From Nitrospirota bacterium (GTDB taxonomy: Bacteria > Nitrospirota > UBA9217), in NCBI GenBank assembly GCA_963754875.1, contig CAVWHO010000015.1, positions 1 to 64,000 of the forward strand: a stretch of DNA of 64,000 bases, in the 5' to 3' direction. Within the stretch, counting starts at the first letter, position 1. Each line of letters begins with the position of its first letter. A model generated the notes under the pieces. It was not told the DNA's origin and made no database searches. It worked only from the letters and a program-made list of their open reading frames with translations. The position numbers and the translations under genes are program-made. Positions 695 through 64,000 of the stretch are shown here, one piece after another.

Positions 695-698
695 GTCG

Positions 699-1722: not shown

Positions 1723-1729
1723 GGACTGC

Positions 1730-5483: not shown

Positions 5484-5504
5484 GCAAGCACTCGTCACTT
5501 GGAA

Positions 5505-5822: not shown

Positions 5823-5849
5823 GGAAAGCTCAGCTCGCCCATCGCTCTC

Positions 5850-6522: not shown

Positions 6523-6543
6523 AGAAGAAGTGCCCGCCAACGC

Positions 6544-7044: not shown

Positions 7045-7191
7045 ACACCTTCACCATGGCTCGTGCAAATATTCCGCCTCCTGTTCCGGGGTCAACTTGC
7101 TGGCCAGTTTCCGCACCTCGGCCGCCCAACGTGTGCCGTTGGTTTCGTCCGGATAATCGAGTTTCTTCCGCTTGCCGGCTTTCCGTTTCAT
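7010..7191 (-). CDS. Putative small antitoxin overlapping the PIN gene start
   Basis: MKRKAGKRKKLDYPDETNGTRWAAEVRKLASKLTPEQEAEYL..AMVKVYGG. It is small, lies directly upstream of the PIN gene and overlaps it. Confidence 0.55.
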
Positions 7192-7388
7192 GCGTGGCAA
7201 AACTACGCGGTTGGACCGGCTTCCGCAAGCTCCGGGCAGTTCGCCCGGCCCGAACCCTCGGCGAACGGCGCGCGGCTGTCCCAGCCGCAGCACTTCTCCG
7301 CCCACAGTTACGCCAGCCGTGACTTTCGGCGAGCGCGATGGCAGAATGACCCGGGCAATGAGAGCAGCAGCATTTCACTTCCGGCCTG

Positions 7389-7538
7389 GAGATCAACGGC
7401 CGGCTGGTGCTGGTGTATTCCGCCGATGGCCTGAACGACGTGGCCAACGCCAAGGGCTGCTGCTGCGGCGGCGGCAACGAAGTCGCCGACCCGGCCAAGG
7501 TGAACGTGAACGTGTTTACCAATGCGGTGGTGTATTGA
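7389..7538 (+). repeat. Direct repeat copy 2 (orphan duplicate of the DUF4159-like gene 3' end)
   Basis: Encodes EINGRLVLVYSADGLNDVANAKGCCCGGGNEVADPAKVNVNVFTNAVVY* with no gene body upstream. Confidence 0.9.
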
Positions 7539-7561
7539 CGATCGAGCGTTTTCGCAGCGGC

Positions 7562-9170: not shown

Positions 9171-10204
9171 AACCCGAACCTGCCTTCCTTTGTAGGCTGA
9201 CGCCACGTGTGGCCAGCCGTTTCCTTTCCCCTCACCCCTGCCCTCTCCCTTGGGGAGAGGAGAACCGGGTCCAGCGCGGGAGGAGTTACACGCAGCAACA
9301 CCTTTCCAAGCGACGTGAGCTACCTGTTCCCTCTCCTCGGGGAGAGGGTCAGGGTGAGGGGAAAGGAGCCGGATCGAGTTTGCGACGCACCACCCAGTTC
9401 ACGGCCGGGAATTGGACCGCAGGTTTCTTTGCTGTGCTCCTGTTCACCGCCCTGCCCGCTCTGGCCGACATCCCGGCCGGCTGGAGCACAAATCTCTCGG
9501 ACACTTTGACGTCCGCCGCGACGAATGATCGTCCGGTGCTCCTCACTTCACCGCCACGTGGTGCGGGCCGTGCAAATTGATGGCGGCAAACACGCTGCCG
9601 GATCCCGTCGTGCGCAGCAACCTGGCCCGCTTCGCCTGCGTCGCGCTCGACCTCGATGCCAACCAGGCCGCCGCCCAACAGCGCGGCGTCTCTGCCAGTC
9701 CCGCCTTCCTCGTGTTGAACTCCGCAGGGGACGTGATCCTGCGCATGGAAGGCTATCGGGATGCGACGCAATTCAATGCCTGGCTGGAGGAGGCGGTGAA
9801 GACCGCCCACGCCGCCGCGCAGAAGAAGGTGTCGGCGTTTCTGAAGCAACAAGACGCCATCGCCACGGCACTGAAATCATCCGATGCGGCGGCCCGCCGG
9901 CAGGCGCTGGCCGACCTGCTGAATCTCTGCGCCGACCGCGAACCGTCGCACCAGCATGTACGCTGCCGCTCAACTCAAGGCCGTGGCCGCCGCCGATCCG
10001 AGTGCGCTGCTCGATGGACTGGAGCACCCCCGCCTGGCCACACGCATTGCCGTGGCAAATCAGTTACGAGAAACGCTGGGCAGGGAGATTGCGTTCGATC
10101 CCTGGGCCAGCCCGGCGGAGCGCGCGAAAGTCATCACCGAACTCCGTCAACAGTCCTTTCCCAAGATCGGAGGAAAGCCTGTGCAGGCGGAACGGCAGGA
10201 ATGA
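9167..10204 (+). CDS. Exported thioredoxin-family protein with a C-terminal HEAT-like helical region (frameshifts near 9545 and 9960)
   Basis: ATGA overlap with the upstream stop, signal peptide ..LLFTALPALA-D, active site FTATWCGPCKLM. Confidence 0.7.
9222..9367. repeat. REP/MITE-like element, CCCCTCACCC..CCCTCTCC family
   Basis: Perfect 16-bp outer inverted repeat TCCTTTCCCCTCACCC / GGGTGAGGGGAAAGGA, with two internal CCTCTCC-n-GGAGAGG hairpins. Confidence 0.8.
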
Positions 10205-10309
10205 ACCGTGGCGGCGACGGCCTCGTCGCCGGAGCGCGGGCGCGGCGCCTCGACGTACGACTGCGGTTAAAGGGCCATGAGCAGAACCGAAAGGAACACG
10301 CGAAGCTTC

Positions 10310-42377: not shown

Positions 42378-43590
42378 CTAGTGTAGTGTCTCACAAACGA
42401 CTGGTGTTATCAGCCTTTTTCTTGCGAGAGCGAGGTAATGTGCAGCCTGGCTGAATTTTCTCCAATGTTTGTTTGCAGCGTCCAAGTTTCTTAACGATCG
42501 ATTCAACGGTTGCGGTCCATACAAACGGTTTTGGGTCTTTGTTCCAAGCAGCCAAATACTCTTCGATAGCGCTCTTGAGCGCGTCCACGCTGACAAAGAC
42601 TCCGCGACGTATTCGTTTTCCCGTCAGTTCTCCGAACCAACGCTCAACAAGGTTCAACCAGCTTGAACTGGTCGGGACGAAGTGGGAAACAAAACGTGGA
42701 TGCCGTGTTAACCATCTCTGGACTTTGGGGTGCTTATGCGTGCCATAGTTATCCATCACTATGTGCAGCTGCTTTTCGACCGGGAATTCAGCATCCAGTT
42801 GCTTTAAAAACTTGAGAAATTCCTGATGGCGATGCCGAGCATAACATTGACCGATCACTTTACCTTGCGCCAATTCGAGCGCAGCAAAAAGGGTTGTCGT
42901 GCCGTTACGCTTATAGTCATGAGTCATGGTACCGCAACGCCCTTTTTTTAAAGGAAGTCCCGGTTGTGTACGATCTAACGCTTGAATCTGGCTTTTCTCA
43001 TCCACACACAGCACTAATGCTTTTTCTGGAGGATTGAGATAGAGCCCGACGACATCGGTAAGCTTTTCCAAGAACCGTGGATCGCGTGACAACTTAAATC
43101 CCGTGGTTCTGTGCGGCTGAATATGATGACTTTGCCAGATCCTATTGATCGTTGCTTTGCTCACGCCCTGCTGTTCAGCCATCGTTCGGCAACTCCAATG
43201 GGTGGCTCCAGCAGGCTTCGTTTGCAGTGTGGCATTAATTATTTTATTAATTTTGGTTGCCGTTAACTCTGGTTTACGTCCGCGACCTGCCGCAACTTCC
43301 CAAAGGCAGTCCGGACCTTCACTACAGAACCGCTGCCTCCATAATGCAGCCGTTTTATAATTGATTTGCATTTGCTTTGCGATGGCCTTGTCTTGTTGGC
43401 CATTCGCAGCGGCTAGAATAATTCGACACCGTTGAGCAACTTGTTGCGGGGTGCGATGAGCCCGCACCCATTGCTCTAGTTCTTGTCGATCAGACTCAGT
43501 AAGGTTTATGGTTAAAGCGTGTCGTGCCATGAACAGCATCCTATCACAAATCATGACATAACACCAGTTAATTGAGAGACACTACACTAG
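42378..43590 (-). mobile_element. IS630-family insertion sequence, apparently intact
   Basis: Terminal inverted repeats CTAGTGTAGTGTCTC-n7-ACTGGTGTTAT at both ends, CTAG on each flank, one transposase ORF. Confidence 0.95.
42391..43530 (-). CDS. IS630 transposase
   Basis: HTH region, THWSCR, and the catalytic motifs CVDEKSQIQ, VMDNY.THK, SSWLNLVERWF. Confidence 0.95.
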   Translation of the reverse strand: MARHALTINLTESDRQELEQWVRAHRTPQQVAQRCRIILAAANGQQDKAIAKQMQINYKTAALWRQRFCSEGPDCLWEVAAGRGRKPELTATKINKIINATLQTKPAGATHWSCRTMAEQQGVSKATINRIWQSHHIQPHRTTGFKLSRDPRFLEKLTDVVGLYLNPPEKALVLCVDEKSQIQALDRTQPGLPLKKGRCGTMTHDYKRNGTTTLFAALELAQGKVIGQCYARHRHQEFLKFLKQLDAEFPVEKQLHIVMDNYGTHKHPKVQRWLTRHPRFVSHFVPTSSSWLNLVERWFGELTGKRIRRGVFVSVDALKSAIEEYLAAWNKDPKPFVWTATVESIVKKLGRCKQTLEKIQPGCTLPRSRKKKADNTSRL

Positions 43591-48022: not shown

Positions 48023-49111
48023 TCACGCCTGTATGTTCACTCCCGCTGCGGGGTTGCTTTCAAAATTGATCGTCGGATGATGATGAACAACGACGTGCCC
48101 GAGCCTGAGCCCTGCCGAAACGAACTGTCCCTTGAGGACGTCAGTCCCCTCCTGAAGAAGACGGACGAAATCGCTTTTTTCCGCCATGCAGGTGACATGC
48201 ATATACCCGCCCTGGGAAACCAGATTCACGCGCACCTTTCCCGCCCGTTCCAGATCGAGGTTCACTGTGCAGGTGAAGGACCGCTCGCCGACTTTGCCCC
48301 GGTCATACTCCCTCAGAATGACTTCTCCCTCCCGAAGTTCACGCCATACGAGCGGCAGGAAAAATTGCAACGTATCCGTAAGCTTCGACTGCAGTTGATA
48401 GAACTCGATGTTCCGGAGCACAGTATTCAACGCACCGAGCAATTCGTCGGTGTTCAGCCTGCCCCGCATGTGCTCCACGACAGCCGGCTCAAGGAACATG
48501 TCCTTGAGCCGAAGGAGCGAGGCCTTCAGATCGCCGGCGATAATGCGGCCCGCCTCGATGTCGGCCGACGAGCCTTCTGCCTCCATGCCGCTCACAAGGA
48601 TCCTGAGTTTGGCCTCAAAAAAAACGCCGCCGTTCTCGAAAACATCCTGAAGAGTTTTCCCTGACAGGTTTTCAATTTGGAGCAGAAAGCGGCTGATGAT
48701 GTCGGTCTCGGGGAGGCTCTCTTTGAGCGGTTCAGGGAGCGCGGCGAGCAGCCTGACGAGCTTCTCCATGCCCCCCGTTCCGGAATTGAGCCCCTCGAAC
48801 TTATTCAGCGCTGAAAGGATCGTGCTCTTGATGGAATCGGCTTCTTCCGCACCATGACCCGACAACCTGAGGTACACGCTGTTTTCCTGCCGCTCAACCC
48901 GCAGGTTAAGAGTATCCCCTTTTTGAAGCGGAACTTCGCTCTGCACCTCCAGCATGGTGTTCTTGAGTCTGATTGTCGCGCTGCTGTCCGCACGAACATC
49001 GATCACTTCAGCAGTCACGATCTCACCGGCACGCAGCAGCGTTTCCCTCCCGTTCATGAGCAAGGAAAAAACATGGCCGATTTGTGATAGGGGACTTCCC
49101 TGCATACCCAC
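48023..49111 (-). CDS. FliK-like (hook-length control) domain protein
   Basis: NGGVFFEAKL, DLKASLL, C-terminal VNLDLERAGKVRVNL. It lies directly upstream of the FlhB-like gene. Confidence 0.65.
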   Translation of the reverse strand: MGMQGSPLSQIGHVFSLLMNGRETLLRAGEIVTAEVIDVRADSSATIRLKNTMLEVQSEVPLQKGDTLNLRVERQENSVYLRLSGHGAEEADSIKSTILSALNKFEGLNSGTGGMEKLVRLLAALPEPLKESLPETDIISRFLLQIENLSGKTLQDVFENGGVFFEAKLRILVSGMEAEGSSADIEAGRIIAGDLKASLLRLKDMFLEPAVVEHMRGRLNTDELLGALNTVLRNIEFYQLQSKLTDTLQFFLPLVWRELREGEVILREYDRGKVGERSFTCTVNLDLERAGKVRVNLVSQGGYMHVTCMAEKSDFVRLLQEGTDVLKGQFVSAGLRLGHVVVHHHPTINFESNPAAGVNIQA

Positions 49112-49557: not shown

Positions 49558-50763
49558 TTATACTATCTTTGAAAATCCACTGTATTCATCCGCATTAGGG
49601 TCCATTATCTTCCCGTACGTGTCCTTGCCTTTGAATAGAAAATAGACATGTGAAGGATCGATCGTCCCGTTGCCGTAGCCATTTTGCGAGATAGTAAAAG
49701 TTACGGAAGCGCTGTTGCTTTGGGAATCGTAAACCACATTCGTTGGCTGTGCAGGAAGGTCCACTTCTGTAGAAGGCACGGGCAAACCGAAATTATAAGT
49801 ATTGCTGATGAGTGGCCCATATTGCCTTCCAATTTGCCAGTTGGCTACATTCTCAACTGAGTTTTTATCCATTGCTTTGGAGAACGTGAAATTCATTGTA
49901 AAATCTTTTGTAGCGTTCGGAGCTGATAAAGATGAACTCAGGTCAGTCAGCGCCGTTCCCATACCGTCTGTTGTAATAAATCCATTTGTGTTGTAAGCTG
50001 CCAATAATTTCGGACTGGCGACCTTAGTCATGTAGGTCTGAAGGCTCGTGATCTGCTGGGTCGCTTTCAGATTCGTTAATGTTGCCAGCTGTTTCTGCGC
50101 ATTAGCAACATCACCCATATCGGCATAGGCGCTTCCCAGTTCAAGATAACTATTTGCAAACGTTTTATCCATGGTAATCGATTTATTAAGCTGAACAATC
50201 GCGTCTTTATTATCTCCCATTGCCCTTAATACCTGCCCCAGTCCATAGTATCCGGTAGCACTGGTGGGGGCAATCTGGGTGACCTTTATGAATTGGCTCT
50301 TGGCATCACTCAAACGGCCGGAGGTAAGATAAGCCTCCCCGAGCGAATACCGGTTGTCGGCGGAATTGTAATTTAAGCGCACAGCTTTCTCATACTCTGC
50401 TTGTGCATCTTTCAATTGTCCGTTTTTAAAGTATATGTCACCGAGGGCCAGGTGAAAATTGTCCGCCGAGGGGAACACTTTGATAGCAGTTTTGTACGTT
50501 TTTATCGCATCGTCTGTTTTGTTCAGCTGAAGATAGGCCTTGGCCATGTAATCAAATGCCTTGGATGAATTATCAGAAGACAGAGAGAGAGCAGTAGTCT
50601 GTTTGAATTGTTTTACCGCTCCGGCGTAGTCTGTTTTTGTGTAGAGATCAATACCTCTCCCAAGTGCCAGGCCGGCCAAATTATCAATCTGATCCTGAGA
50701 GGCGACATTGCTTGTGAAAAGATAGTCGATTGATGACGCAGGTATGGGATCGCTATAACTCAT
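49558..50763 (-). CDS. TPR-repeat protein with a C-terminal Ig-like domain
   Basis: About six TPRs (FHLALGDIY, RYSLGEAY, GYYGLGQV, YLELGSAY) and a beta-rich C-terminus (FTFSKAMDKNSVEN..NW.I). Confidence 0.8.
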   Translation of the reverse strand: MSYSDPIPASSIDYLFTSNVASQDQIDNLAGLALGRGIDLYTKTDYAGAVKQFKQTTALSLSSDNSSKAFDYMAKAYLQLNKTDDAIKTYKTAIKVFPSADNFHLALGDIYFKNGQLKDAQAEYEKAVRLNYNSADNRYSLGEAYLTSGRLSDAKSQFIKVTQIAPTSATGYYGLGQVLRAMGDNKDAIVQLNKSITMDKTFANSYLELGSAYADMGDVANAQKQLATLTNLKATQQITSLQTYMTKVASPKLLAAYNTNGFITTDGMGTALTDLSSSLSAPNATKDFTMNFTFSKAMDKNSVENVANWQIGRQYGPLISNTYNFGLPVPSTEVDLPAQPTNVVYDSQSNSASVTFTISQNGYGNGTIDPSHVYFLFKGKDTYGKIMDPNADEYSGFSKIV

Positions 50764-50840: not shown

Positions 50841-50867
50841 TTATCGGCTAAGCAGTCGAAAACTTTA
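50841..50867 (-). promoter_or_regulatory. Sigma28 (FliA) promoter
   Basis: The minus strand reads TAAA-GTTTTCGACTGCTTA (15 nt)-GCCGATAA, a perfect consensus. Confidence 0.85.
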
Positions 50868-51073: not shown

Positions 51074-51189
51074 AGTTCAAAAGAGAATCTAAAGCATCTT
51101 CAGCACTTAATATCTTCATCTCAGTGCAAGCAGACAACAAGTGATCATAATTCACATAAACCCTATTGCGGCTACAAGGAAGGCATTCA

Positions 51190-54100
51190 ATGATACATTG
51201 CATCGGTGATAGTCCTGTATATGTATTTACCGGAGTGGACACAATCGGTGGCAACGACATTCTCTTGGATTTCAAGACCTACCGGCTTGGCCCCCACACT
51301 GCGTATAATGCGATAACAAAATGGGATATAATCGAAAGCTTTTTAAAGAATTCCGTTAAACCAAGCGATTCGGTCATGTTTTGTTTTGGGGAGATCGACT
51401 GCAGAGTACATTTACAGAAGCAATCAGAGCTGCAGAAACGGCCCCTGGAAGACGTAGTGAGTGAGTGCGTGCAGAGATATTTTGCTGTATTCGAAAAGGC
51501 GAAACACTACGGTCATCAACTGCTTGCATGGAATGTCCCGGCGTCAAGCCTCAACAACGTGGGATACGGCGAGTACTCAACCTATGGCAATTGTAAGCAA
51601 AGAAATGAAGTAATCAGTCTGTTTAATAAACATCTCAAGCGGCTCTGCGAAAAAAACGGTGTTATTTTTATTTCGATCTTTGACAAACTCGTCGATGACG
51701 ACGGGCTGACCAATCCTCTTTATTATATGGATTCCATTCATCTCTCACAAAGGGCAATGCCGCTTATTCAGGAGGTGCTGCGAAACCACGGTATACGACT
51801 TTCTCCATTGCAGCGCGATGAAGGCCGACAGCTTGATTATCTGACCACGCTGGCGAAATCCGGCACTGCCCTGGAATTCCGCAACATCAAATCATCTGCA
51901 GGATCACTGCGACCGCAAATTTTGCAATTCCTGTCACGGACCTTTGGTCTTGAAACCTTTATAGAAACAGGAACTTTTATGGGCGATACCACTTTCATCG
52001 CCTCCGACATTTTCAAAACCGTGCACACCATAGAACTAAGTCCTGAATTGCACCAAAAAGCGGTAAAGCGATTTGAGAACCGTTCTCACGTTCACGTGCA
52101 TCATGGTGACTCCAGCAGTATATTCCCGGAGATACTCGGCCAAAATAATCAGAATGTGCTCTTTTGGCTGGATGGTCATTACAGCGAGGGAATCACGGCA
52201 AAAGGTGACGAAAACACACCCATCATCCAGGAATTGAAGGCGATCAAGAACGCACAGACAAAAAACGCAGTGATCCTCATCGATGATCTCAGGATGTTTG
52301 ACACGACGTGGGACCATATCCCCCTGGATTCGGCCGCACGGGGTTATCCAATGGCGACATCTCTGTGTGCTGCAATACAGGAGATAGATCCATCATATGA
52401 ATTCGCGGTTCTTGGCGATGTTTTTATGGCTTATCCAAAACGAGATCAGCAGGTAATCTCGCAAGTAGTTGCTGCCTGCACCATCAGCAGGCTTTACGAT
52501 GGGAGCAACTATGAACTGCAAGAAGTTTTGAAAGCTGAAGCGGTAATCGGCGCAGCGCAAAATGAAGAATTGTCGTTCCTGCAGTGTCTCTATGTGCATC
52601 TTATCGGATCGGAAGAATATGGTTTTGGCCAACATTACCGGCTTTGGGCTGCGCTCACCCAGGCTGCGAATAAAAAGTACGACAGGGCATGTAAGGAATT
52701 ACTGATCGCTATCAACCTCGGATGTGAACATTGGCGAGTCAACTGGTATCTCGCAAACGACGCTTATGAAGCCGGCTTTTATTCTCTTGCTGATAAATCT
52801 CTTGAAAAGGCTGAGCAGGCTTCGCCGGATTTTCAGGAAGCAATACACCTTAAGCAAAAGATAGCACGGGACCTGAGCGAACGGCGTCAGGAGAACAGTT
52901 TCACCAGGCAAGATCATCTGGAGATCGCCGTTCATCTGCAGAGAGCGGGAAGAACACAAGCAGCCCGTGATGAACTTCAGGCAATCCTGTCGGGCAATGC
53001 TTCTGACAAGGATGTTCTCTACGAGTACGCGAGTTGCCTCATCGAGGCGAAACAGCAAGAAGCCGCAAGCGAGCAATTACAGGATATATTGAAGCGTGAT
53101 CCTTCCTACGCGAACGCTCAGAATAGCCTGGGCGTGATCGCCTATCAACAAGGTCATCTTGATAAAGCCATGGAATATTTCGGCATGGCGTTATCGCAAG
53201 AGAATCTGAATCACCAGGCATTGCAAAATGCCTTGATTCTGTCTAAGCAACTCGGCATCAGCAATGAAGCATTGTGTATGCTTCGCGACATACTGGTTAA
53301 ATTTCCAAACGACTCAACTCTCGCTAACATTGCCCAACGGTTCATCGACGATCAAAAAAACGCCAAGAATCGGGAAAACACCAACTATGCAGCAAATGAG
53401 CAATTATCGTCTATGAAAAAAGGCAATAAATCTGCTGCGGCTACCGGCAAACCAGAAACCGGTTCATCGGCTGCAGCGGCGTCCGGGATTACTTCCGGAA
53501 GTGACTCACCGCATTCTAAGACATTCATCATTAACATGGTCTATGAGCATTTATCACAACAGCAGATGCATACCAAACATGCCGATTCGATTTCAATCAT
53601 CTGGTCGGCCGTCCCGCTCGAAGGCTGCGACGTATATGCATATGTGAATGCAAGCAGCTTTCGCGGACGAATCGGCGGCATACAGGTGTTGTTAATGCTG
53701 GAGCCGGTCGTCGTATTGCCCGGTGAATACAGCGAGGTTGTATGGAGAAACTTCGACTATGTTTTTACCATGTGCGATGCACTGGTCGGAACGCACCCAA
53801 GGTTCGTCAAAATACAGTATCCGCGCGCCGACTGGATCGTTCCGGCGGCGAGCACAGAAAACCTCGATGGGCGTCGGAATAATTATCCAACGGAATCGCG
53901 TGCAAATGCAATCTGTATGATTAACGGAAACAAGCATTCCTTCATTGAGAGTGAATTGTATTCTAAACGCATGGAAGCAGCACTCTGGTTCCATCTGCAC
54001 TCCGATATTCCGTTCGAGGTTTATGGACGGCCCCCGTTCGCATTACCCAATTACCGTGGCGCACTTTCACCCGAAAACAAACTCCCGACGCTATCGCACT

Positions 54101-57100
54101 TTCGCTACAGTCTCTGCTTCGAAAATACTAATCATCGAGAGTACTCTGCAGGATACATAACCGAAAAAATCCTCGATTGTCTGGAGACGCGCACCATCCC
54201 GATCTACCTTGGCGCTGTGAATATCGAACATTATGTCCCAAAAGAGTGTTTCATCGACATGCGCGAGTTCAAAAGCTATTCGCAATTGGACGCTAATCTG
54301 CGCTCAATGACCTCGGGAGAATATCTTCGCTTTATTGACAAGATAGATGATTGGGTCTCTCGGGGTGGCCTGCGCCCCTACTCCATTCACAGAGTTTATG
54401 ATAAGCTGGCGTCGCTTCTGGCTGGAACAGCACTTGCCCTGGAGTGGCAGAATGGCTTGGTTTTCAATCATGCAACAAAACAATGGCATCCTGTAATCTC
54501 TCCTGCCTTATGGACATGGAATGATCTGGCAAATGCTGACCCACCGGTGAGTGTTCTTCCACCGAGACGCGCCGGGCAGGATAGCAACGATCTTACAAGA
54601 CAAGAGAAGGCACACCAGCTGATCGATGAATTTGCCGAGTTCAAAGCCGATGCGGAGGAGAATATGAAATCAAATGCAGCATCGTTTTATAAAACGCTCT
54701 TGTCCGTCTGGCCAATTCACAATATTCCCCAGCAACAAAATGTCTTTGTGCATCCCGTTTGGCAAAAGCAGCTTACAGCTCTCGGAGAATTAATAACCCA
54801 GGGATTGCCCGAAAACTTCCTGCTTCACCCAATTTGCCGCGAAATGTTTGTACGGATTGGATGGAACAAACAGCAAGAGCATGAACTGTCCTATATCGAC
54901 CAGCTCAGCAGCAAACTTCGAAAAAAAATATACTCCTTAAAAGAGTCGCCAATCGGATCGATTCCCCTTGACTGTAAGAAACTGCCTCTTTCCGTGAATA
55001 CTCTCGGCATGATCTGGTATTTTGCGCGTATCCATGAACTTCTGGCAAAATCGCCTGCCACGGTTATTGAATTGGGTGGTGGTTTCGGCTCACTTGCCCG
55101 GGTATTCAAATCCCTTGGCAACCCCGCCCTCACCTATACCATAATTGATTTGCCGGAGATGCTGGCTCTTCAATACTTTTATCTCTCTGCGACCCTGGGA
55201 CGAGATGCAGTCGAAGCTCATGTCAAGCCTGATGAACGCGTTGTTCCCGGAAAAATCAACCTCTTTCCGGTTTATGGAATCGAAGCTCTGAATCTTTCTG
55301 CAGATCTTTTTGTATCAACCTTCGCCCTCTCCGAGACTCCCCGGTTCATGCAGGAGCATGTCTGCGGAATTAAGAATTTTTTCAATGCACCCTTTGTTTA
55401 TATAACCGGTCAGAATGTGACCGAACGGAGCGAGCTCGGATGGCAGCCTCCACAGACAATAGTCCAGCAAGCCCGCGACTCCCGCCAAAAGGTCGTAGTG
55501 AATCGTTTTCATATCGGCGACAACTATGAACTGATTGCTTCGCAACTTGTTCACGCCGGCTTAAACCATCCGGGGACTGCCGCACGATCACTGGGCGCGA
55601 GAGATGGCGGGAACGTTGTCCGGGAAGATACGCAGACAACAGCAACGCCGGCCCAACCAAATGCAAAAACAGTCGGGTTGACAGTCAGCAAAGACCGTGC
55701 GATGCAGTTGGAGGCTACCGTAAGAAGCTTTTTCAAGCATTGCAAAGACGCGGATCAGTTGCGCCTAAAAGTGCTTTATACAACCTCCAGCAATTTTCAT
55801 GAAGCCCAATATCAGCAACTAAAACACGAGTATCCTGCTGTGGATTTCGTCCGGGAGACTTCGTTTAAAAAAGACTTCTTGGCAGTTTTGTCGGATTTTC
55901 AATATGTCTTGTTCATGGTCGACGATAACATCTTCGTTCGCGACTTTTCACTTGTGCATGTCACTCAAAGTCTCGGCAATAATCCAGATGCCATCGGGTT
56001 TTCTCTCCGGCTGGGAAAAAACACGAACTACTGCTACATGTTAAACAGAGCACAAGCTGTCCCTCCTTTTCAATTGCTGGACTACAATATGCTGAAATTC
56101 AACTGGACGACTGGAGAATGCGATTTCGGGTACCCTCTGGAGCTGTCGAGTTCGCTTTATCGAACTGCGAGTATTCTTCCGCTGCTGCATCAGCTTGATT
56201 TCAAGAACCCGAATACCTTGGAAGCTGCCCTGGATCTCAACAAACACCGATTTGCGGCGGGGAATCAGCACCTCCTCTGTTACGCAACATCGGTGGCATT
56301 CTGCAATCCGATTAATAAGGTCCAGACAGTCTACAACAATAAATCCGGCGTTGACACTTCGTATTCGCCTAGCCTGCTTGCGAAGCTGTACAGCCAGGGT
56401 TCCAGAATAGACCTTGTTCCTTTCGAGAACTTCGAACCGAACTCGTGCCATCAGGAAATGAATTTCCGGTTCGCAACCCCTTCCGAAGAACACGCTGCAG
56501 CCGCCACAGGTGACAGGTCTGCCCAATCGCTTGTCTCCATTATCATACTCAACTACAATGGTTTGGAACATATCCGGCCCTGCCTGGAGTCGATTCAGCG
56601 GAATACCCCGGAGCGCCACGAGATCATCGTGGTCGATAATGCTTCGACCGATGGTTCAAAAGAAGAGCTCCGGTCTCGCAGGGACATCACTCTCGTGGAG
56701 AATCAGACGAATATCGGTTGCCCCCCCGCGCGCGCCCAGGCACTGACGCTCGCAACAGGCGATTATGTGGTCTTCCTCGATAATGATACCATCGTCACCC
56801 CGAGATGGCTGACGACGTTCCTCGAACATGCCAAAGCAAATCCCCTCATCGGGATCATGGGACCGCGTTCAAACTATGTGTCAGGTTCCCAGCTTGTTCC
56901 CAACGTACCTTATAAGGATATCCCCGGACTCGAGGCGTTCTCCCTGCAGCTTGCCGCGGAACACAGAGATCAGCTTACCCGGACACGCCGTCTTGTCGGT
57001 TTCTGCATGTTCGTTCGAAGGGAAGTGATCGATAAAATCGGCAACATTGACGAATCATTCGGCAAGTTTGGTTTTGAGGACGATGACTATACCTGGCGCG

Positions 57101-60100
57101 CACATATCGCCGGTTTTACTGCCGTGATCGCAAATGATGTTTTCATTCATCATACGGGCGGACCACAGGGACGTGGAAATCAGCAGTACAACCAGCTCCT
57201 GTTACAGGCATGGACAGTATTCAGGAACAAGTGGGAGCTGCCCGCGAATCTGGCCTACGGGTCGCCGTTCGATCTTTCGACCATTCTAACAAGGCCCTTT
57301 GATCCGCGAAAACATTATCTTCCCCTTGTTGCCCGGTCCGATATCAAGGCGATTGTCCGTGAAGCGTCGGACCGCTCCAGGGCCGCAGAGAAGCCGTCGG
57401 TGGCCTCCGTTGCCGCGAAGGCGATCAAAAAAGCCCGCGAGCTTCAGGAGAAGGACCGGCTTGAGGATTCCATCGCAGCGCTGATGGACGGCATCGCCCA
57501 GGCACCGGCTGATAAAGCGCTTTATCTCAGTCTCGCGGAGATCCTGATCGAGGCAAAGCGATATCAGGATGCTCTTGATGCGCTCAATTCCCTGCCTGAG
57601 GAAGGAAAGAACGACATTGTAGCGCTTGCATTGAGAGGATATTGCCACGACGGATTAGGACTCTTTGCCGAGGCACATGCCGATGCCGACCGTGTTCTGG
57701 CGCGGCAGCCGAATTCAGCCATGGCTCTGAATTTAAAAGGCGTGCTTGCGTACAAACAGGGAGACAGGGACGGCGCGGAGCGGTTCTTTGCCGCCGCTGT
57801 CGCCGCCGGCCCCGGCTACGGGGAGGCCTATGCCAACCTCGGCGTATTAAAATGGTCCGCGGACAGGAAAGAGGACGGCCTCCCCCTGCTCGAAAAAGGG
57901 TTTATTCTTTCTCCGACTGCGTCTGAACTTGTTTCGCTCTATCACACGGCGATCGTTTCGGAAGGCCTCTTTGCCCGCGCCGAAAAGTTCTTTCAAGAAG
58001 CAAAGGCGCTTCATCCGAACAACAAAAGGATAGCCTTCTTGCTGATCGATCTTTTGAACAAACAGGAGAAACACGACCTCGCCATGCGCGAAATCGAGCA
58101 GGCCATGATCCGCTTCGGCATCGACGACGGAATTCTGGCCGCAGCTCTCGATGTGCGCGGGAAGGTTGGCCCTCACCACATGATACCATCCGGCAAAACG
58201 GAAAAAACGTTGAGCCTCTGTATGATCGTAAAAAACGAGGAGCACTGCCTGGCAAATTGCCTAGCGAACGCGAAGCCCATAGTTCATGAAATGATTGTAG
58301 TGGATACAGGATCGAACGACCGGACCAAGCACATCGCCCATGCCTTCGGAGCCAAGGTGCTTGATTTCGAATGGACCGAGGACTTTTCCAAAGCCCGGAA
58401 CTTCTCCTTGTCAAAGGCTTCCGGGAGATGGGTCCTCGTTCTGGATGCAGATGAGGTAATCTCTCCTTCCGATTTTGCCGCTGTGCGCGAAATAGTAGAT
58501 ACTGCCGATCCTTCAAGGACGGCTTACAAGATAATGACGCGAAATTATTCAAATGAGGCGACCGAGCAGGGATGGAGGCAAAATCGCGGGGAGTACCCGG
58601 ATGAGGAGGCTGCGACGGGGTGGTTTCCCAGCGAAAAGGTCAGGATTTTCGTGAACGATGAACGCATCAGATTTGAAGCTCCCGTTCATGAATTAGTAGA
58701 GGGCTCGCTGCAAAAAGCGGCAATAGCAATCAAGCCGTGCACTATATCGGTCCACCATTATGGAAGACTCGATGCTAAAAAAAGGGCGACAAAGGGCGAA
58801 ACGTACTATCTCCTCGGCAAAAAAAAGATGGATGAACAAGGGGGCGACCTGAAGGCTTTGTTGGAACTCGGGATACAGGCAGGGGAATTGGGGAAATATG
58901 ACGAAGCTGTTCAGTTGTTTAAAAAGCTTGTGGATGCCGATCCGAAATATTCCAAGGCCCTATTCTATCTTGGCTATACTTATATGGTCCTCGGCCGGCA
59001 TCATGACGCCCTTCCCTATTGCAAAGAAGCGTATGCACTTGACCCCGGGGACAGGGAAGCCGCCGTTAAATATGCTCAATGTGAGATCGCGGTCGGAGAT
59101 ATTGCACTTGCCGTTTCTCTGCTTGAGGACATGGTCCGGAGGTCCCCTGATTCCATCGTTGCGGAAAGCCAGCTTGCAGTCGCGTACTGCGTTATTGGCG
59201 AGAGCGGGAAAGGGATTGCGATTCTTGACCGGCTGAGAGAAAAAAATGTGGACACTGCCTCTTTTGTCCGTGATCAGGCCGGCATTTTGCGTTCAGCAGG
59301 GAGGGTGGAAGATGCCCGGCGATTGTTGGCCGTAGCCGTGCAGGCCAATCATGCCTCGGCGAAGACGCAAAAACTTTTTGAGGAAGGTAAAACCGAAGAC
59401 AGGGAGAAGGAGACGATTGCACGACCAATGACGACCAAAGGGTTGACCTCCATCATTATTGCGGTACAGGAGGGTCAGGAGCATGTAAAACAATGTATCG
59501 AGGCCCTGGAACGCAATACTCCCGAAGAACATGAAATCGTCATGGTAACGAGCGGAGCGAACAGCGTGGAGATCGAACGTCTGAAACGATATTCTAAGAA
59601 GCGAAGGAATTATCGTGTGCTCGATGCCGGCGGCGCAGCGGGATACGCCGCATACCTCAATAAAGGCATTGCCGAAACCTCGGGTGAATTCATAGTTCTC
59701 TTATCTCCCAAGACACTGGCAACGGAGAACTGGTTGTCAGGCTTACGAGAGTGCATTGATTCCCCTTCCCCCGCAGGAGTAGGGATTGTTGGCCCGATGA
59801 CCAATGATAAGGCCGGAATACAGAAGGTACCCCGGATCGATTATGAGCCTCACGAGGGTCTTGAAGGGTTTGCTCGCGATTTCAGAGAAAGAAACCGACA
59901 CCGGCGCGTCAGCGCCAAATATGTCGCTGGATTCTGCATGCTGTTGCGCCGTGACCTTGTGGAAAAGGTTGGGTTGTTCGATGAAAATCTGGGCAATAGC
60001 AACAGTGAGGATGAGGATTATTGTCTCAGGGCCGCACTTGCGGGTTTTAAAACCATTATCGCGGGAGACGTATTCATTCATCGAGGCGACGAGGAAGATA

Positions 60101-62220
60101 CAAGAAGATATCGTCGGCCGCTGCTGCAGAAGTGGACTGCCATCGGCAGGGCGTCCGAGTTAAAGAAAAAATTGACCGCAAGAGATGCAATCGAGCGCGC
60201 GAATAAGCTATTCGAAAAAGGTCAGGACAATGATGCGGTGACTGAAATTATGAAGGGGATTTCTCATTCCCCCGAGGAAGCGACTCTCTTTTATTTTCTT
60301 GCTGGAATGTTGATTGAGGCAAAGCGTTACCCGGACGCCCTCGATGCGCTTAAGGGCCTGCCTGAAGCGGCCCAGCGCAACAGAAAAGGTCTTGAGTTGA
60401 CCGGCTATGCCCAAGAGGGTATGGGTCGAGATGTTGAGGCCGAGGCGACGGCCGATCTACTCCTAGCTCTCTATGCGGAATCCGCAGCAGCAATGAATCT
60501 TAAGGGGGTACTTTCCTATAAGCGAGGAGATAAAGACGGCGCTGCTGTTTTCTTTCAACGGGCCAGAGCGCTGGACCCGGGCTATGGCGAGCCATTAATC
60601 AATCTCGGCATTTTGCATTGGGCCGCGGACCAACGGAGTGAAGCCGTGCAGCTCCTGGAAAAGGGATTTATTCTGTCCCCCCTGGCCCAAGATAATGTAT
60701 CCGCATATTATAATGCCGTGTCCGCCCTACAAGACTGGGACAGGGCCGCGCTGGTCTTCAAGGAGGCTGCGTCTCTCCATCCTTGGAACAGGAGACTCGC
60801 TTTTTTCCTCATAGAGCTCCTGCTCCAGCAGGGCGATCTCAAGGAGGCAGCGCGGGAGATTGAGGACGGAATAATTGCATTCGGCAATGGCGACGGGCTA
60901 CTGGATTCTGCCCTTGAGATCCGCGCGAAAGTCGGTCCGAAGCAAATCGACAGAGCCATTCGGAAAAAAGGAACGTTATCGGTCTGCATGATCGTCAAGA
61001 ATGAAGAACAGCACATGGCGCGTTGTCTGAGGAGTCTTGGACCGGTAGCGGATGAAATGATCGTCGTGGACACGGGGTCGACAGACAGGACAAAGGACAT
61101 AGCCCGCGCCTTTGGGGCAAAGGTTTATGATTTTGCCTGGACAAACGATTTTTCAGCGGCGAGAAACTTTTCTTTAGAGAAGGCGAGTGGGGATTGGGTC
61201 CTCGTCTACGATGCCGATGAGGTGTTGTCTCCCCTTGATTATTCCAATTTGTTCGACATCCTGCGAGCGGGGACGAAGCATAAGGCGGCGTATTCCCTGG
61301 TAACCCGGAACTATACCATGAACACCCCCCAGGGCTGGACCGCAAATAAAGGGCAATATCCCAAGGAAGAGGCTGGCAGCGGGTGGATGCCCACAGCCAA
61401 GGTGCGGCTTTTCGTGAATGACCCTCGTGTTCGTTTCGAAGGACCAGTTCATGAGGTGGTCGAACACTCACTGCTCAGAGCGGGCATACCGGTCAAAGCA
61501 TGCGCCGTCCCGGTCCATCATTACGGCAGGCTCAATGTGGAAAAGACCGCGGCCAAGGCGGAGGAGTACTATGTCCTGGGGAAGAAGAAGCTGGAAGAAA
61601 AAGGGGGCAGCCACCGCGCGCTTCGGGAACTCGCGATCCAGGCTGGTGAGCTCGGGAAATATGAAGAAGCGATCGAGCTATGGAAGCGGCTTATCGCTCA
61701 AGGCGCAAGGGGCGAAGATCTGACTCTCGCCCAATTCAATATGGGAAGTTATTACTTTGTTCTCGAGAACTATGAGGATGCCCTTGCGATGTCGAAAAAA
61801 GTTTTGGAACTCGACCCTACGATGAAAGAGAACATCATCGTCTATGCCTGCAGCGAGCTTTGCGTCGGCGACGTGAAAATGGCGATCCCGGCCCTCAAGA
61901 AAATCCCTGACGAGGGCGCGGACTATCCGCAGGCGATTGCCGCGCTTATGATAGCGCACCTATTGAACGGCGACAGAGACGACGGAATTGCCTGCATACG
62001 CAAGCTCCACGGCATCCAGGTAAACGTTCCTGAATATTTATATACTTTTGCAACGTATTTGATAAAAGCGGACAGAATCGAGTATGCGGTCATCCTGCTT
62101 GAAGCGGCGATCGAAACCGGCAATCTTCATCAAGATACCCATGCTCTCCTTGCGAAGTGTCGGCGCAGACTGGGTGCCGGTGATGCTTCAGCGCGCATGG
62201 TCATGCGACAGCATTCTTAA
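51190..62220 (+). CDS. Giant multi-domain glycosyltransferase/methyltransferase/TPR protein (~3680 aa)
   Basis: One uninterrupted 11-kb ORF. Motifs in order: SGNH-like, SAM-MTase, TPR, GT10, sugar O-MTase, GT-A, then 2x[GT2-TPR-GT2-TPR]. Confidence 0.9.
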   Translation: MIHCIGDSPVYVFTGVDTIGGNDILLDFKTYRLGPHTAYNAITKWDIIESFLKNSVKPSDSVMFCFGEIDCRVHLQKQSELQKRPLEDVVSECVQRYFAVFEKAKHYGHQLLAWNVPASSLNNVGYGEYSTYGNCKQRNEVISLFNKHLKRLCEKNGVIFISIFDKLVDDDGLTNPLYYMDSIHLSQRAMPLIQEVLRNHGIRLSPLQRDEGRQLDYLTTLAKSGTALEFRNIKSSAGSLRPQILQFLSRTFGLETFIETGTFMGDTTFIASDIFKTVHTIELSPELHQKAVKRFENRSHVHVHHGDSSSIFPEILGQNNQNVLFWLDGHYSEGITAKGDENTPIIQELKAIKNAQTKNAVILIDDLRMFDTTWDHIPLDSAARGYPMATSLCAAIQEIDPSYEFAVLGDVFMAYPKRDQQVISQVVAACTISRLYDGSNYELQEVLKAEAVIGAAQNEELSFLQCLYVHLIGSEEYGFGQHYRLWAALTQAANKKYDRACKELLIAINLGCEHWRVNWYLANDAYEAGFYSLADKSLEKAEQASPDFQEAIHLKQKIARDLSERRQENSFTRQDHLEIAVHLQRAGRTQAARDELQAILSGNASDKDVLYEYASCLIEAKQQEAASEQLQDILKRDPSYANAQNSLGVIAYQQGHLDKAMEYFGMALSQENLNHQALQNALILSKQLGISNEALCMLRDILVKFPNDSTLANIAQRFIDDQKNAKNRENTNYAANEQLSSMKKGNKSAAATGKPETGSSAAAASGITSGSDSPHSKTFIINMVYEHLSQQQMHTKHADSISIIWSAVPLEGCDVYAYVNASSFRGRIGGIQVLLMLEPVVVLPGEYSEVVWRNFDYVFTMCDALVGTHPRFVKIQYPRADWIVPAASTENLDGRRNNYPTESRANAICMINGNKHSFIESELYSKRMEAALWFHLHSDIPFEVYGRPPFALPNYRGALSPENKLPTLSHFRYSLCFENTNHREYSAGYITEKILDCLETRTIPIYLGAVNIEHYVPKECFIDMREFKSYSQLDANLRSMTSGEYLRFIDKIDDWVSRGGLRPYSIHRVYDKLASLLAGTALALEWQNGLVFNHATKQWHPVISPALWTWNDLANADPPVSVLPPRRAGQDSNDLTRQEKAHQLIDEFAEFKADAEENMKSNAASFYKTLLSVWPIHNIPQQQNVFVHPVWQKQLTALGELITQGLPENFLLHPICREMFVRIGWNKQQEHELSYIDQLSSKLRKKIYSLKESPIGSIPLDCKKLPLSVNTLGMIWYFARIHELLAKSPATVIELGGGFGSLARVFKSLGNPALTYTIIDLPEMLALQYFYLSATLGRDAVEAHVKPDERVVPGKINLFPVYGIEALNLSADLFVSTFALSETPRFMQEHVCGIKNFFNAPFVYITGQNVTERSELGWQPPQTIVQQARDSRQKVVVNRFHIGDNYELIASQLVHAGLNHPGTAARSLGARDGGNVVREDTQTTATPAQPNAKTVGLTVSKDRAMQLEATVRSFFKHCKDADQLRLKVLYTTSSNFHEAQYQQLKHEYPAVDFVRETSFKKDFLAVLSDFQYVLFMVDDNIFVRDFSLVHVTQSLGNNPDAIGFSLRLGKNTNYCYMLNRAQAVPPFQLLDYNMLKFNWTTGECDFGYPLELSSSLYRTASILPLLHQLDFKNPNTLEAALDLNKHRFAAGNQHLLCYATSVAFCNPINKVQTVYNNKSGVDTSYSPSLLAKLYSQGSRIDLVPFENFEPNSCHQEMNFRFATPSEEHAAAATGDRSAQSLVSIIILNYNGLEHIRPCLESIQRNTPERHEIIVVDNASTDGSKEELRSRRDITLVENQTNIGCPPARAQALTLATGDYVVFLDNDTIVTPRWLTTFLEHAKANPLIGIMGPRSNYVSGSQLVPNVPYKDIPGLEAFSLQLAAEHRDQLTRTRRLVGFCMFVRREVIDKIGNIDESFGKFGFEDDDYTWRAHIAGFTAVIANDVFIHHTGGPQGRGNQQYNQLLLQAWTVFRNKWELPANLAYGSPFDLSTILTRPFDPRKHYLPLVARSDIKAIVREASDRSRAAEKPSVASVAAKAIKKARELQEKDRLEDSIAALMDGIAQAPADKALYLSLAEILIEAKRYQDALDALNSLPEEGKNDIVALALRGYCHDGLGLFAEAHADADRVLARQPNSAMALNLKGVLAYKQGDRDGAERFFAAAVAAGPGYGEAYANLGVLKWSADRKEDGLPLLEKGFILSPTASELVSLYHTAIVSEGLFARAEKFFQEAKALHPNNKRIAFLLIDLLNKQEKHDLAMREIEQAMIRFGIDDGILAAALDVRGKVGPHHMIPSGKTEKTLSLCMIVKNEEHCLANCLANAKPIVHEMIVVDTGSNDRTKHIAHAFGAKVLDFEWTEDFSKARNFSLSKASGRWVLVLDADEVISPSDFAAVREIVDTADPSRTAYKIMTRNYSNEATEQGWRQNRGEYPDEEAATGWFPSEKVRIFVNDERIRFEAPVHELVEGSLQKAAIAIKPCTISVHHYGRLDAKKRATKGETYYLLGKKKMDEQGGDLKALLELGIQAGELGKYDEAVQLFKKLVDADPKYSKALFYLGYTYMVLGRHHDALPYCKEAYALDPGDREAAVKYAQCEIAVGDIALAVSLLEDMVRRSPDSIVAESQLAVAYCVIGESGKGIAILDRLREKNVDTASFVRDQAGILRSAGRVEDARRLLAVAVQANHASAKTQKLFEEGKTEDREKETIARPMTTKGLTSIIIAVQEGQEHVKQCIEALERNTPEEHEIVMVTSGANSVEIERLKRYSKKRRNYRVLDAGGAAGYAAYLNKGIAETSGEFIVLLSPKTLATENWLSGLRECIDSPSPAGVGIVGPMTNDKAGIQKVPRIDYEPHEGLEGFARDFRERNRHRRVSAKYVAGFCMLLRRDLVEKVGLFDENLGNSNSEDEDYCLRAALAGFKTIIAGDVFIHRGDEEDTRRYRRPLLQKWTAIGRASELKKKLTARDAIERANKLFEKGQDNDAVTEIMKGISHSPEEATLFYFLAGMLIEAKRYPDALDALKGLPEAAQRNRKGLELTGYAQEGMGRDVEAEATADLLLALYAESAAAMNLKGVLSYKRGDKDGAAVFFQRARALDPGYGEPLINLGILHWAADQRSEAVQLLEKGFILSPLAQDNVSAYYNAVSALQDWDRAALVFKEAASLHPWNRRLAFFLIELLLQQGDLKEAAREIEDGIIAFGNGDGLLDSALEIRAKVGPKQIDRAIRKKGTLSVCMIVKNEEQHMARCLRSLGPVADEMIVVDTGSTDRTKDIARAFGAKVYDFAWTNDFSAARNFSLEKASGDWVLVYDADEVLSPLDYSNLFDILRAGTKHKAAYSLVTRNYTMNTPQGWTANKGQYPKEEAGSGWMPTAKVRLFVNDPRVRFEGPVHEVVEHSLLRAGIPVKACAVPVHHYGRLNVEKTAAKAEEYYVLGKKKLEEKGGSHRALRELAIQAGELGKYEEAIELWKRLIAQGARGEDLTLAQFNMGSYYFVLENYEDALAMSKKVLELDPTMKENIIVYACSELCVGDVKMAIPALKKIPDEGADYPQAIAALMIAHLLNGDRDDGIACIRKLHGIQVNVPEYLYTFATYLIKADRIEYAVILLEAAIETGNLHQDTHALLAKCRRRLGAGDASARMVMRQHS

Positions 62221-62594
62221 ATTGCCGATCCCCGTAGACCTGCAGCAAGATTCAAATTTATATTGATGAGAATATTGAGCTTCTCGGATTCGGGATCAGC
62301 CATGACATCGAGAATTTGTTTGTCGATAAAAAGACTTAACGTTAAAATGTCTTTTCTGATCTGCAGCGGGAGCGGGTTGTCCTGCCGGGCAAGCTCTGAC
62401 TGAATGATGGTCCATATCTGCTGATTGAGACGCAATGCATCACTAAGCCTCTGGAAATGCCCTTCCTCTGCCCACCTGGCCTGGCAATCCTGAAGCTTCA
62501 TCGCCGCATTATTGAGGGCTGCTGCTTCGATGTCCCGTCCGGACATGGTTGATTTTTGAACATTCTTATAAACCTGCATTTGCGTTGCGTACAC
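62217..62594 (-). CDS. flaF: Flagellar biosynthesis regulator FlaF
   Basis: SGRDIEAAAL, ALRLNQQIW, NPLPLQIR..IL.LS.F, LININ.NLAAGL. GTG start after an AGGAGG RBS. Confidence 0.88.
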   Translation of the reverse strand: MYATQMQVYKNVQKSTMSGRDIEAAALNNAAMKLQDCQARWAEEGHFQRLSDALRLNQQIWTIIQSELARQDNPLPLQIRKDILTLSLFIDKQILDVMADPESEKLNILININLNLAAGLRGSAI

Positions 62595-62973
62595 GATTAA
62601 TAACCTCCTGCTCATATTCGATGAGCTTTCGAGCGGCCTTCATGGCCTGGTAATACTCATTCTGTAAGATATGCTGACTGATGAGAGCAATTAAACCCCT
62701 GGTACTTGGAGCGGCCTCTAATACTTCTTTTACCAATTGCCAGTACACCTTATGGTGTTTGGCCAGATGGCTTTCATCGACGTACATGAGTTGAATGGCA
62801 AAGTATATGCGGCGACACGGTGAATCCGCTTCCTTTGCACTCAGAATATCCTTCTCGCGAAGAATGGGAACGTTATTTTCTACAAGAAAATCGCTCCGGC
62901 TTTTCCCGTTCGTGATGACTGCCCCGCCGATAATCAGGCGTTCGTGCGGTTTTAAAACGATTTTTAGAGCCAT
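62566..62973 (-). CDS. flbT: Flagellar biosynthesis regulator FlbT
   Basis: MALKIVLKPHERLIIGGAVITNG, ILREKDIL...A.SP.RRIYF.IQLMY, YYQA.K..RKLIEYE. Confidence 0.92.
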   Translation of the reverse strand: MALKIVLKPHERLIIGGAVITNGKSRSDFLVENNVPILREKDILSAKEADSPCRRIYFAIQLMYVDESHLAKHHKVYWQLVKEVLEAAPSTRGLIALISQHILQNEYYQAMKAARKLIEYEQEVINRVRNANAGL

Positions 62974-63011: not shown

Positions 63012-63473
63012 TTATACTTTTACATTAATGATGGTTCCGCTCTGGACATGGTCCGCTTTCTGCGTCAGTTGTGGACTGATCGCGTCTTTGTACTGCTTAA
63101 GGTCCACGAGTGCGGCAGCAACTTCCTGGTCCGTAGACTGGTCCGTCAGCTTGGTGGCCGTCAGCGTATCCTTCTGTGCAGGAGCGAGAGGTGACTTCTT
63201 TATCTCATCCTGAACTCCTTTGATCCCTTTGATCAAATCCAGGCGCTGCGGGCTTCCGATGGGGAAAAAGGGAGGAAAGCTGAACATGATCGTTTCCAGC
63301 TGGTCTTTAATATAATTGGTGTCGGCCAGATTGGTCAGCACTTGAGCGGTGGCCCCAGAAGACCTGGCGGCGTCTGAAGAACGATTCTGGACGGCGGCTG
63401 ATGTGCCGTTTTTCTTCGCCGTGCCTGCACCATCGGCCGACGCTGTTTGAAGGTTTATGCCGGTGACATCCAT
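63012..63473 (-). CDS. Hypothetical protein in the flagellin locus
   Basis: GGAGAG RBS, a low-complexity N-terminus, FPPFFPIG, and a C-terminal GTIINVKV like the G..ID/N..V tails of small flagellar-locus proteins. Confidence 0.65.
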   Translation of the reverse strand: MDVTGINLQTASADGAGTAKKNGTSAAVQNRSSDAARSSGATAQVLTNLADTNYIKDQLETIMFSFPPFFPIGSPQRLDLIKGIKGVQDEIKKSPLAPAQKDTLTATKLTDQSTDQEVAAALVDLKQYKDAISPQLTQKADHVQSGTIINVKV

Positions 63474-63553: not shown

Positions 63554-64000
63554 CTAGGCGAACAGCCTCAGGACCGACTGTGCTGCCTGTGAAGAGAGTG
63601 ACAATGCTGTCGTACCAAGAGACTGACGAGTTTGCAGCATCAGCATGTTGGCGCCTTCCTGGTTCGTATCAGCCAGCGTCAGGTTGTCCGAGCCCGTGGT
63701 GAGAACATTGGTCAGTTGTGTCGAAAAATCCTGACGTGTCTGGATGATGCTGAGGTTGTTGGACATTGATCCTGAATCGTTCTGCAAGGTCGTCAGAGCA
63801 TCATTCAGTTTGTTGATGTCCTTTGTCACCGCATCGTTACTCACCCACCCGTTCTGCGCCTCCGACAGCCCGAGTCCGCTGCTGGTAGCATCGAAGCCCT
63901 GCACGTTGAGGGAATGCCCCCCTCCGAAGTTCACGACGAGCGCGCTTGGTGACGCGGTGGTCAGGAGGTTAACACCCTGGAACGAGGAGTCCGCTGCCAT
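63554..64000 (-). CDS. fliC: Flagellin, C-terminal part (runs off the window)
   Basis: DSSFQGVNLL, NLSIIQTRQDF, LTLADTNQEGANMLMLQTRQSL...ALSL.SQAAQSVLRLF. Confidence 0.93.
   Translation of the reverse strand: MAADSSFQGVNLLTTASPSALVVNFGGGHSLNVQGFDATSSGLGLSEAQNGWVSNDAVTKDINKLNDALTTLQNDSGSMSNNLSIIQTRQDFSTQLTNVLTTGSDNLTLADTNQEGANMLMLQTRQSLGTTALSLSSQAAQSVLRLFA

Follow-up and report, generated by a model that had tools for sequence, protein, structure and literature searches.

The question raised by this locus is what an 11-kb open reading frame (ORF), the longest in its genome, is doing inside a flagellar gene cluster. It lies in a 64,000-nucleotide stretch of DNA from a Nitrospirota bacterium (assembly GCA_963754875.1, contig CAVWHO010000015.1, positions 1-64000 of the forward strand; contig C15 of genome G000 in our labelling), hereafter the window, and encodes a giant multi-domain glycosyltransferase. 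A preliminary description had proposed that this one cytoplasmic polypeptide may initiate, extend and modify an O-glycan of flagellin. The giant protein is likely a cytoplasmic polyprotein for flagellin O-glycan synthesis, whereby C-terminal modules resembling the glycosyltransferase GmaR would initiate the glycan and N-terminal modules would extend and cap it. The link to flagellin is supported by the position of the gene in the flagellar cluster, the co-occurrence of its core with flagellin, GmaR as the nearest solved relative, and split forms of the protein encoded beside flagellin.

Architecture of the giant protein

As assembled, positions 51166-62220 of the forward strand constitute a single stop-free frame, in which the ATG at 51190, preceded by a purine-rich ribosome-binding-like stretch, starts a protein of 3,676 amino acids. 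The database gene call P0008 has the same length, and the single ORF of the preliminary description holds in the assembly (coordinates of all features in Table 1). From the N- to the C-terminus the modules are an SGNH domain, a methyltransferase, a tetratricopeptide repeat (TPR) array, a GT10 domain, a NanM-like methyltransferase, a GT-A-fold domain and then twice the series GT2-TPR-GT2-TPR; four stretches of the protein match PF00535, and the four GT2 domains are named GT2a to GT2d. This order, already given in the preliminary description, was borne out by Pfam and NCBIfam profiles, structure models and motifs, all the motifs quoted there being found in the translation. Most of the module junctions are repeated in independent assemblies: locus L070 carries SGNH-methyltransferase-TPR-GT10 and NanM-GTA-GT2a at 52-74% identity, G003 shares the GT10-NanM-GTA-GT2a junctions and G397 shares GT2a-TPR-GT2-TPR. 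As had been claimed, no membrane helix is apparent in the protein (top 19-residue hydropathy 1.47); its first modelled beta-strand starts at residue 2, which would leave no space for a signal peptide, although no signal-peptide predictor was applied.

The C-terminal half resembles a known flagellin-modifying enzyme. GT2b and GT2d both contain the motifs DTGS, DADE, HE and HYG, invariant across 32 cores, and the best Protein Data Bank match of GT2d is GmaR (22ao, E 3.5e-31). An intact homologous GT2, a TPR array behind it and a gene in a flagellar locus are three features of a GmaR-type GT2-TPR enzyme, and all were found here. In GT2c, DNGSTDG is replaced by TSGANSV and NND by SPK. Since DNGSxD (nucleotide-binding) and DxD are thus lost, at most eight of the nine enzyme-type domains look catalytic, against the roughly nine catalytic-type domains counted earlier.

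The two GT2-TPR-GT2-TPR blocks described earlier are present, but they are not sister copies. They are 33-60% identical in segment searches, and a self-BLAST of the whole protein showed no repeat. Recent tandem duplication as the origin of the doubled block was rejected on the strength of this identity and of the failure of a shared clade in an approximately unbiased (AU) test (p 0.0009; quick tree, 22 of 57 rows, with the pair named after the first tree had been seen). The GmaR-like modules of the two blocks group with different relatives, so the second block looks captured or ancient.

The N-terminal modules are more diverse. The SGNH domain matches PF13472 below the cut-off (6.5e-6, 27.2 vs 32.9 bits), while its fold was modelled confidently (predicted local distance difference test score, pLDDT, 94.9), with the sialate O-acetylesterase 6xpg as the top Foldseek match (E 6.4e-9); the predicted fold comes together with the Ser and the Asp-x-x-His motif. 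The nearest Atlas clusters of this module are mostly viral (67-92% viral or bacterial majority, top three clusters), which is taken as a lead only. The GT10 domain matches an alpha-1,3-fucosyltransferase among solved structures (2nzw, E 3.9e-9). The GT-A-fold domain, recognised by its SKDRAMQL motif, has no Pfam or NCBIfam match, and its profile found nothing among solved-structure sequences; its model (pLDDT 94.4) superimposes on GnT-I (Z 13.7, root-mean-square deviation 3.7, 191 aligned residues), which points to a GT-A fold. Of 1,513 candidates, 1,095 are relatives of this domain, hardly any of them with a Pfam assignment, and the analysis thereby supplies an unnamed GT-A family of more than 1,000 relatives for assignment. 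Here too the nearest Atlas clusters are mostly viral (64-83% viral or bacterial majority, top three clusters), again a lead only.

Distribution of the core and variation of the front modules

Among 400 other genomes of the phylum, with two candidates scored per genome, the core TPR-GT2(GmaR-like)-TPR was found in 31. In 21 of these it is located at most ~10 kb from flaF or flagellin, including 16 in which the gene stands tail-to-tail with flaF, as it does in the window. Three further genomes have it beside other genes read as flagellar, two have flagellin on another contig, and five have no flagellin or FliF match. Within the window's family, all but two of the 17 genomes that have both flagellin and FlaF carry the core, as against none of the 46 without (15/17 vs 0/46; kin are not independent). 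The slot beside flaF can hold other TPR-glycosyltransferases in other relatives. As a side observation, in three carriers without flagellin (loci L052 of G347, L055 of G237 and L101 of G205) the giant gene or its cluster adjoins a LuxR-type regulator; in G347 and G237, a multiheme cytochrome gene and genes that we take to be hydrogenase-like come next.

The best 150 protein clusters matching the core have a median length of 1,694 amino acids; 89 reach at least 1,500, 23 at least 2,500, and five have two cores. The last GmaR-like domain lies at most 260 amino acids from the C-terminus in 143 of 148. The front ends, on the contrary, vary: in 21 proteins scanned they include GT2, GT4-like, GT9, GT10, several methyltransferases, sulfotransferase-like, radical S-adenosylmethionine (SAM) and SGNH domains. 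A tailoring domain other than a glycosyltransferase is present in 11 of these 21, where, as we read the domain table, it is always the N-most recognised catalytic domain (11/11); one of the 11 also has a C-terminal methyltransferase. Such hypervariability at the front suggests that surface glycans are under selection, with phage as one possible cause.

Another set of 21 proteins, found by N-terminal queries and mutually related, carries at least three of the front modules of the window's protein. In these, SGNH is always first and GTA-GT2a last, save for one repeated methyltransferase, and only GT10 and methyltransferase 1 swap places. Free shuffling of the modules was therefore dropped; the module order of the giant family is strongly polar. 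The survey for module shuffling suggested earlier supports such shuffling, in that the C-terminal core stays the same while the front modules are exchanged. Where an intact paralogue is present upstream, the GT2 ahead of the core TPR is itself intact in only 4 of 27 proteins, vs 10 of 19 where there is none (p 0.009; 5'-open proteins excluded, kin not independent), as would be expected if a newly added upstream module takes its place.

Split forms place the same parts in separate genes. In G401, the gene order is flgK-flgL, a gene for a 492-amino-acid GmaR-like GT2 directly before fliC, then fliD, sugar genes, a gene for 2,156 amino acids and gmd-fcl-like genes; the 2,156-amino-acid product is the entire front cassette SGNH-GT10-methyltransferase-TPR-NanM-GTA-GT2a. 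In L074, the break comes after GT2a, and the locus adjoins flaF.

Several loci have further unusual partners. In L026:8402-11052 (G012) and L030:8245-10763 (G011), a gene resembling fatty-acyl-AMP ligases overlaps the 5' end of the giant gene, whose product begins with an SGNH-like domain and then a segment that looks like a carrier protein (PF00550 at just E 0.032 in G011 and without a match in G012). These parts might relay an acyl group to the glycan of flagellin. A second giant of ~2,730 amino acids is encoded directly upstream in L039:2075-10282 (G090) and L040:2147-10339 (G072), and its NodU-like, TPR and radical-SAM methyltransferase-like matches stay below cut-off. In L035:3807-8282 (G041), a 1,491-amino-acid neighbour joins two B12-binding/radical-SAM stretches to a glycosyltransferase domain.

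Proposed glycan pathway and competing explanations

GmaR of Listeria monocytogenes is a GT2-TPR enzyme transferring N-acetylglucosamine to flagellin (PMC9638930). It shares with the giant protein the type of GT2 followed by TPRs. As opposed to the two GmaR-like modules and seven other catalytic-type domains of the giant, GmaR is a 637-amino-acid protein in which a single catalytic domain is combined with an antirepressor domain for MogR. Only the glycosyltransferase domain of GmaR was matched; the giant ends ~200 amino acids after GT2d, and nothing matching the antirepressor part was noticed, with no MogR-directed search made. In Clostridioides difficile type B glycosylation, a GT2 initiator and a GT2-methyltransferase fusion act sequentially on flagellin (PMC5207246); the GT2-family enzymes encoded beside fliC (GT1, GT2-methyltransferase and GT3) add sugars in sequence, and the methyltransferase domain is proposed to methylate rhamnoses. 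These are separate genes, whereas the giant is predicted to hold initiator, extenders and tailoring activities in one chain, plus GT10, SGNH and NanM-like domains. The TPR domain of Caulobacter FlmG binds flagellin (PMC7591256). FlmG and Maf enzymes (PMC7591256; PMC13317340) are likewise cytoplasmic flagellin O-glycosyltransferases with TPR-based recognition in a FlaF/FlbT-type flagellar system, but FlmG has a GT-B-type domain and single nonulosonic acids are added; neither Maf-type (PF01973) nor GT41 matches were found in the source genome (90% complete) or in the giant protein. Clostridium GT2-TPR genes have already been read as flagellin transferases (PMC13317340). By this analogy, the giant would work like GmaR and the C. 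difficile extension enzymes in one chain, rather than as GmaR proper, Maf or FlmG.

Multi-activity fusions are known from other glycans. Chlorovirus A064R (PMC9614988) and A111/114R (PMC7826918) are multi-domain proteins building part of a protein-linked glycan, and the two rhamnosyltransferases and the methyltransferase of A064R act in domain order (PMC9614988). They resemble the giant in being multi-domain and differ in having three domains, a viral N-glycan and an N-to-C order, while the giant would run from C to N. WsaE (PMC3898925) and the Klebsiella multi-module enzymes (PMC11231755) also combine several glycosyltransferase modules with a terminating methyltransferase; their glycans are exported by an ABC transporter, and no such transporter or membrane anchor was seen at the giant gene. 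No characterised protein with the full architecture was found in the literature searched, as had been supposed, the smaller precedents being the C. difficile GT2 enzymes, A064R and WsaE; no paper on such giants turned up either, in a search mostly outside subscription journals and supplements. Characterised flagellin glycosylation uses separate enzymes or fusions of two to three activities, whereas here a complete pathway seems to be combined in a single polypeptide. With its core shared by at least 150 protein clusters that differ in their front ends, the family would form a natural toolkit for diversifying surface sugars.

In the proposed pathway, a flagellin O-glycan would be built and decorated in the cytoplasm ahead of export. 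Judging from GmaR and FlmG, the core TPR arrays would hold flagellin while the two GmaR-like GT2 domains add the first sugar, probably an N-acetylhexosamine, to Ser/Thr residues of the variable region; as GT2b and GT2d come from different lineages, they possibly serve different flagellin sites. The subsequent steps, modelled on family assignments and on C. difficile type B glycosylation, would be chain extension by GT2a and the GT-A-fold domain, transfer of fucose from GDP-fucose by GT10, and finally O-methylation by the two methyltransferases together with O-acetylation or de-acetylation by the SGNH domain. GT2c would be a dead spacer, and genes in other parts of the genome would supply the sugar donors. 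There would be no covalent carrier, the TPR-bound protein itself acting as scaffold, and the fusion would hold a strain-specific pathway together as one swappable cassette. If so, one such gene and one flagellin gene should reconstitute a complex, lipid-free O-glycan.

The preliminary description had gone further and likened the protein to a modular non-ribosomal peptide or polyketide synthetase. No PF00550 carrier domain was matched in 14 segments spanning the giant protein at E up to 0.1 (among the best 25 families for two TPR-rich segments), which makes the analogy loose. Moreover, the modules belong to different enzyme families, one GT2 is degenerate, and the pathway also exists as separate proteins. 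What stands is the polar module order, which keeps an ordered relay possible. A true assembly line running from the C- to the N-terminus, whereby the core clamps flagellin and adds the first sugar, upstream modules add the next ones, N-terminal modules cap the chain and new steps are gained at the 5' end, is a tentative extension that we regard as doubtful; if it were true, glycan structure could be predicted and reprogrammed from domain order.

Several observations weigh against flagellin as the substrate of a fully active protein. Besides the two-candidate limit of the genome survey, five genomes of another family (G291, G205, G347, G237 and G231; 96-100% complete) encode core giants of 1,584-3,358 amino acids with no match to flagellin or FliF, so the giant family is not flagellin-only. 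The slot is unoccupied in at least two flagellin loci (G246 and G232), which makes the giant gene dispensable, and the co-occurrence of core and flagellin can also arise from linkage in one block. Donor genes are situated in clusters of the lipopolysaccharide (LPS) or exopolysaccharide (EPS) type (wzx/WbaP), not adjoining the giant gene. Upstream of the giant gene, promoter scans of the forward strand gave no sigma-28, sigma-70 or sigma-54 match. In the N-terminal part, the assignment of methyltransferase 1 depends on sub-threshold matches (PF13578 3.4e-5, below cut-off; E 0.03 at best against solved structures), and His9, kept in 10 of 11 SGNH domains of giant proteins, is Pro in the window's protein alone, a change that may disable the domain.

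The carriers without flagellin bear most directly on the best-surviving alternative, a broader cytoplasmic O-glycosylation machine that would mainly serve a different exported protein, of a filament or of the cell surface (type IV pilin or pseudopilin), with flagellin as one client or none. All five have prepilin-type genes, as does the source genome (17 matches), and their giants adjoin TPR-GT41 and TPR-GT9 genes; the two GmaR-like lineages in one chain could also serve two substrates. In the window's family, however, the core was found only in flagellin-positive genomes, and the giant gene is inside a flagellar cluster, where none of its neighbours was recognised as a pilin gene. This alternative appears unlikely, though less so than the others.

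It is improbable that the giant is a multi-module enzyme making LPS O-antigen, capsule or EPS and is merely parked in the flagellar cluster. The precedents are the fusions of several glycosyltransferases with a methyltransferase in lipid-linked glycan assembly (PMC3898925, PMC11231755), and the location of the donor genes would fit. On the other hand, the giant protein has no membrane anchor, and its gene is flanked by flagellar genes, with no transporter, flippase or initiating phosphotransferase recognised among them. Five TPR arrays and two GmaR-like domains are typical of protein or peptide glycosylation, and the separate LPS/EPS clusters of the source genome have their own transferases.

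It is equally improbable that only the C-terminal core acts on flagellin, with the N-terminal modules being hitch-hiking fusions created by lost stop codons, independent or decaying. The split forms L064 and L074, the degenerate GT2c, the loss of His9, the mostly viral Atlas neighbours of the SGNH and GT-A families and the lower G+C content of the 5' half of the gene (0.45-0.49 vs 0.50-0.56 in the 3' half) are all in line with it. Yet many independent assemblies have these modules fused, at 45-70% identity and in nearly fixed order, and GT2a has intact motifs in 25 of 25 domains that come after the GT-A domain, both of which count against it. An assembly artefact, such as a chimera of two strains' genes giving the doubled C-terminal block, could account for the two GmaR-like modules not being sisters and for the rarity of doubled cores (5/150), but is very improbable, since DNA identity between the blocks (66% over 626 bases, 80% over 55 bases) is too low for a repeat mis-join, and two-core proteins with the same TPR-to-GT2c junction are present in other assemblies (G291, G205, P0274).

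Flagellar surroundings and source genome

The neighbourhood flaF-flbT-flagellin reported next to the giant ORF was confirmed by profile matches. The single flagellin found in the source genome has 75 Ser/Thr among the 246 residues of its central region, and FliF is present. For sugar donors, the genome has rmlBCD, gmd, which passes its cut-off, and fcl-like genes, which score 497 and 447 bits against a cut-off of 500.

Table 1. Features of the giant gene and its surroundings in the window.
Feature	Position	Strand	Basis or remark
fliK-like hook-length control gene	48023..49111	-	PF02120 1.7e-11
Conserved TPR gene of the flagellar cluster, ~400 amino acids, divergent from the giant gene	49558..50763	-	cross-genome comparison
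Exact sigma-28-type promoter consensus, facing the TPR gene, not the giant gene	50842..50867	-	pattern scan
Giant multi-domain glycosyltransferase ORF	51190..62220	+	3,676 amino acids, ~411 kDa
SGNH-fold domain, predicted O-acetyl transferase or esterase	51190..51825	+	Ser8, Asp181, His184 present; family His9 is Pro here
Predicted class I SAM methyltransferase 1 (FIETGT/FWLDGH) plus co-travelling tail	51826..52929	+	weak matches only
TPR array 1, then Ser/Ala/Gly-rich linker	52927..53469	+	profile match
GT10 fucosyltransferase-like domain	53497..54579	+	PF00852 1.9e-15, over cut-off (57.5 vs 23.9 bits)
NanM-like putative sugar O-methyltransferase	54637..55599	+	TIGR04371, 57 bits vs cut-off 44
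GT-A-fold domain, SKDRAMQL, unnamed family	55657..56499	+	Asp89-Asp90 invariant
GT2a, catalytic motifs all intact; predicted chain-extending transferase	56527..57399	+	motif and profile
TPR array 2, conserved core type	57427..58179	+	profile match
GT2b, GmaR-like (SLCMIVKNEE), motifs intact; predicted initiating transferase	58192..58869	+	motif, profile
TPR array 3	58867..59409	+	profile match
GT2c, degenerate, likely pseudo-enzyme or spacer	59422..60159	+	DNGSxD and DxD lost
TPR array 4, conserved core type	60187..60939	+	profile match
GT2d, GmaR-like, motifs intact; predicted initiating transferase	60952..61629	+	GmaR match
TPR array 5, C-terminal	61627..62217	+	profile match
flaF, its stop codon overlapping that of the giant gene (tail-to-tail)	62217..62615	-	NF009435, over cut-off
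flbT	62566..62973	-	NF001995/NF009432
Conserved 153-amino-acid gene, no family, between flbT and flagellin	63012..63473	-	cross-genome comparison
Flagellin 3' end (516 amino acids, on to contig position 65104), predicted substrate	63554..64000	-	profile match

The promoter site was scanned with a pattern that we take to be the sigma-28-type consensus. The divergent TPR gene also persists in flagellar clusters that have nothing in the glycosyltransferase slot. The 153-amino-acid gene is conserved in many relatives; in some, a flagellin-like gene takes its position. At 1-10300 of the window, the G+C content is 0.62-0.67 vs 0.41-0.58 for most of the remainder, and most ORFs sampled there are without a Pfam match. 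A second gmd-like gene, on contig C10 of the source genome (L088:4124-5312), is split over two frames, and an IS630-family transposase is encoded at 42391-43554 on the reverse strand of the window.

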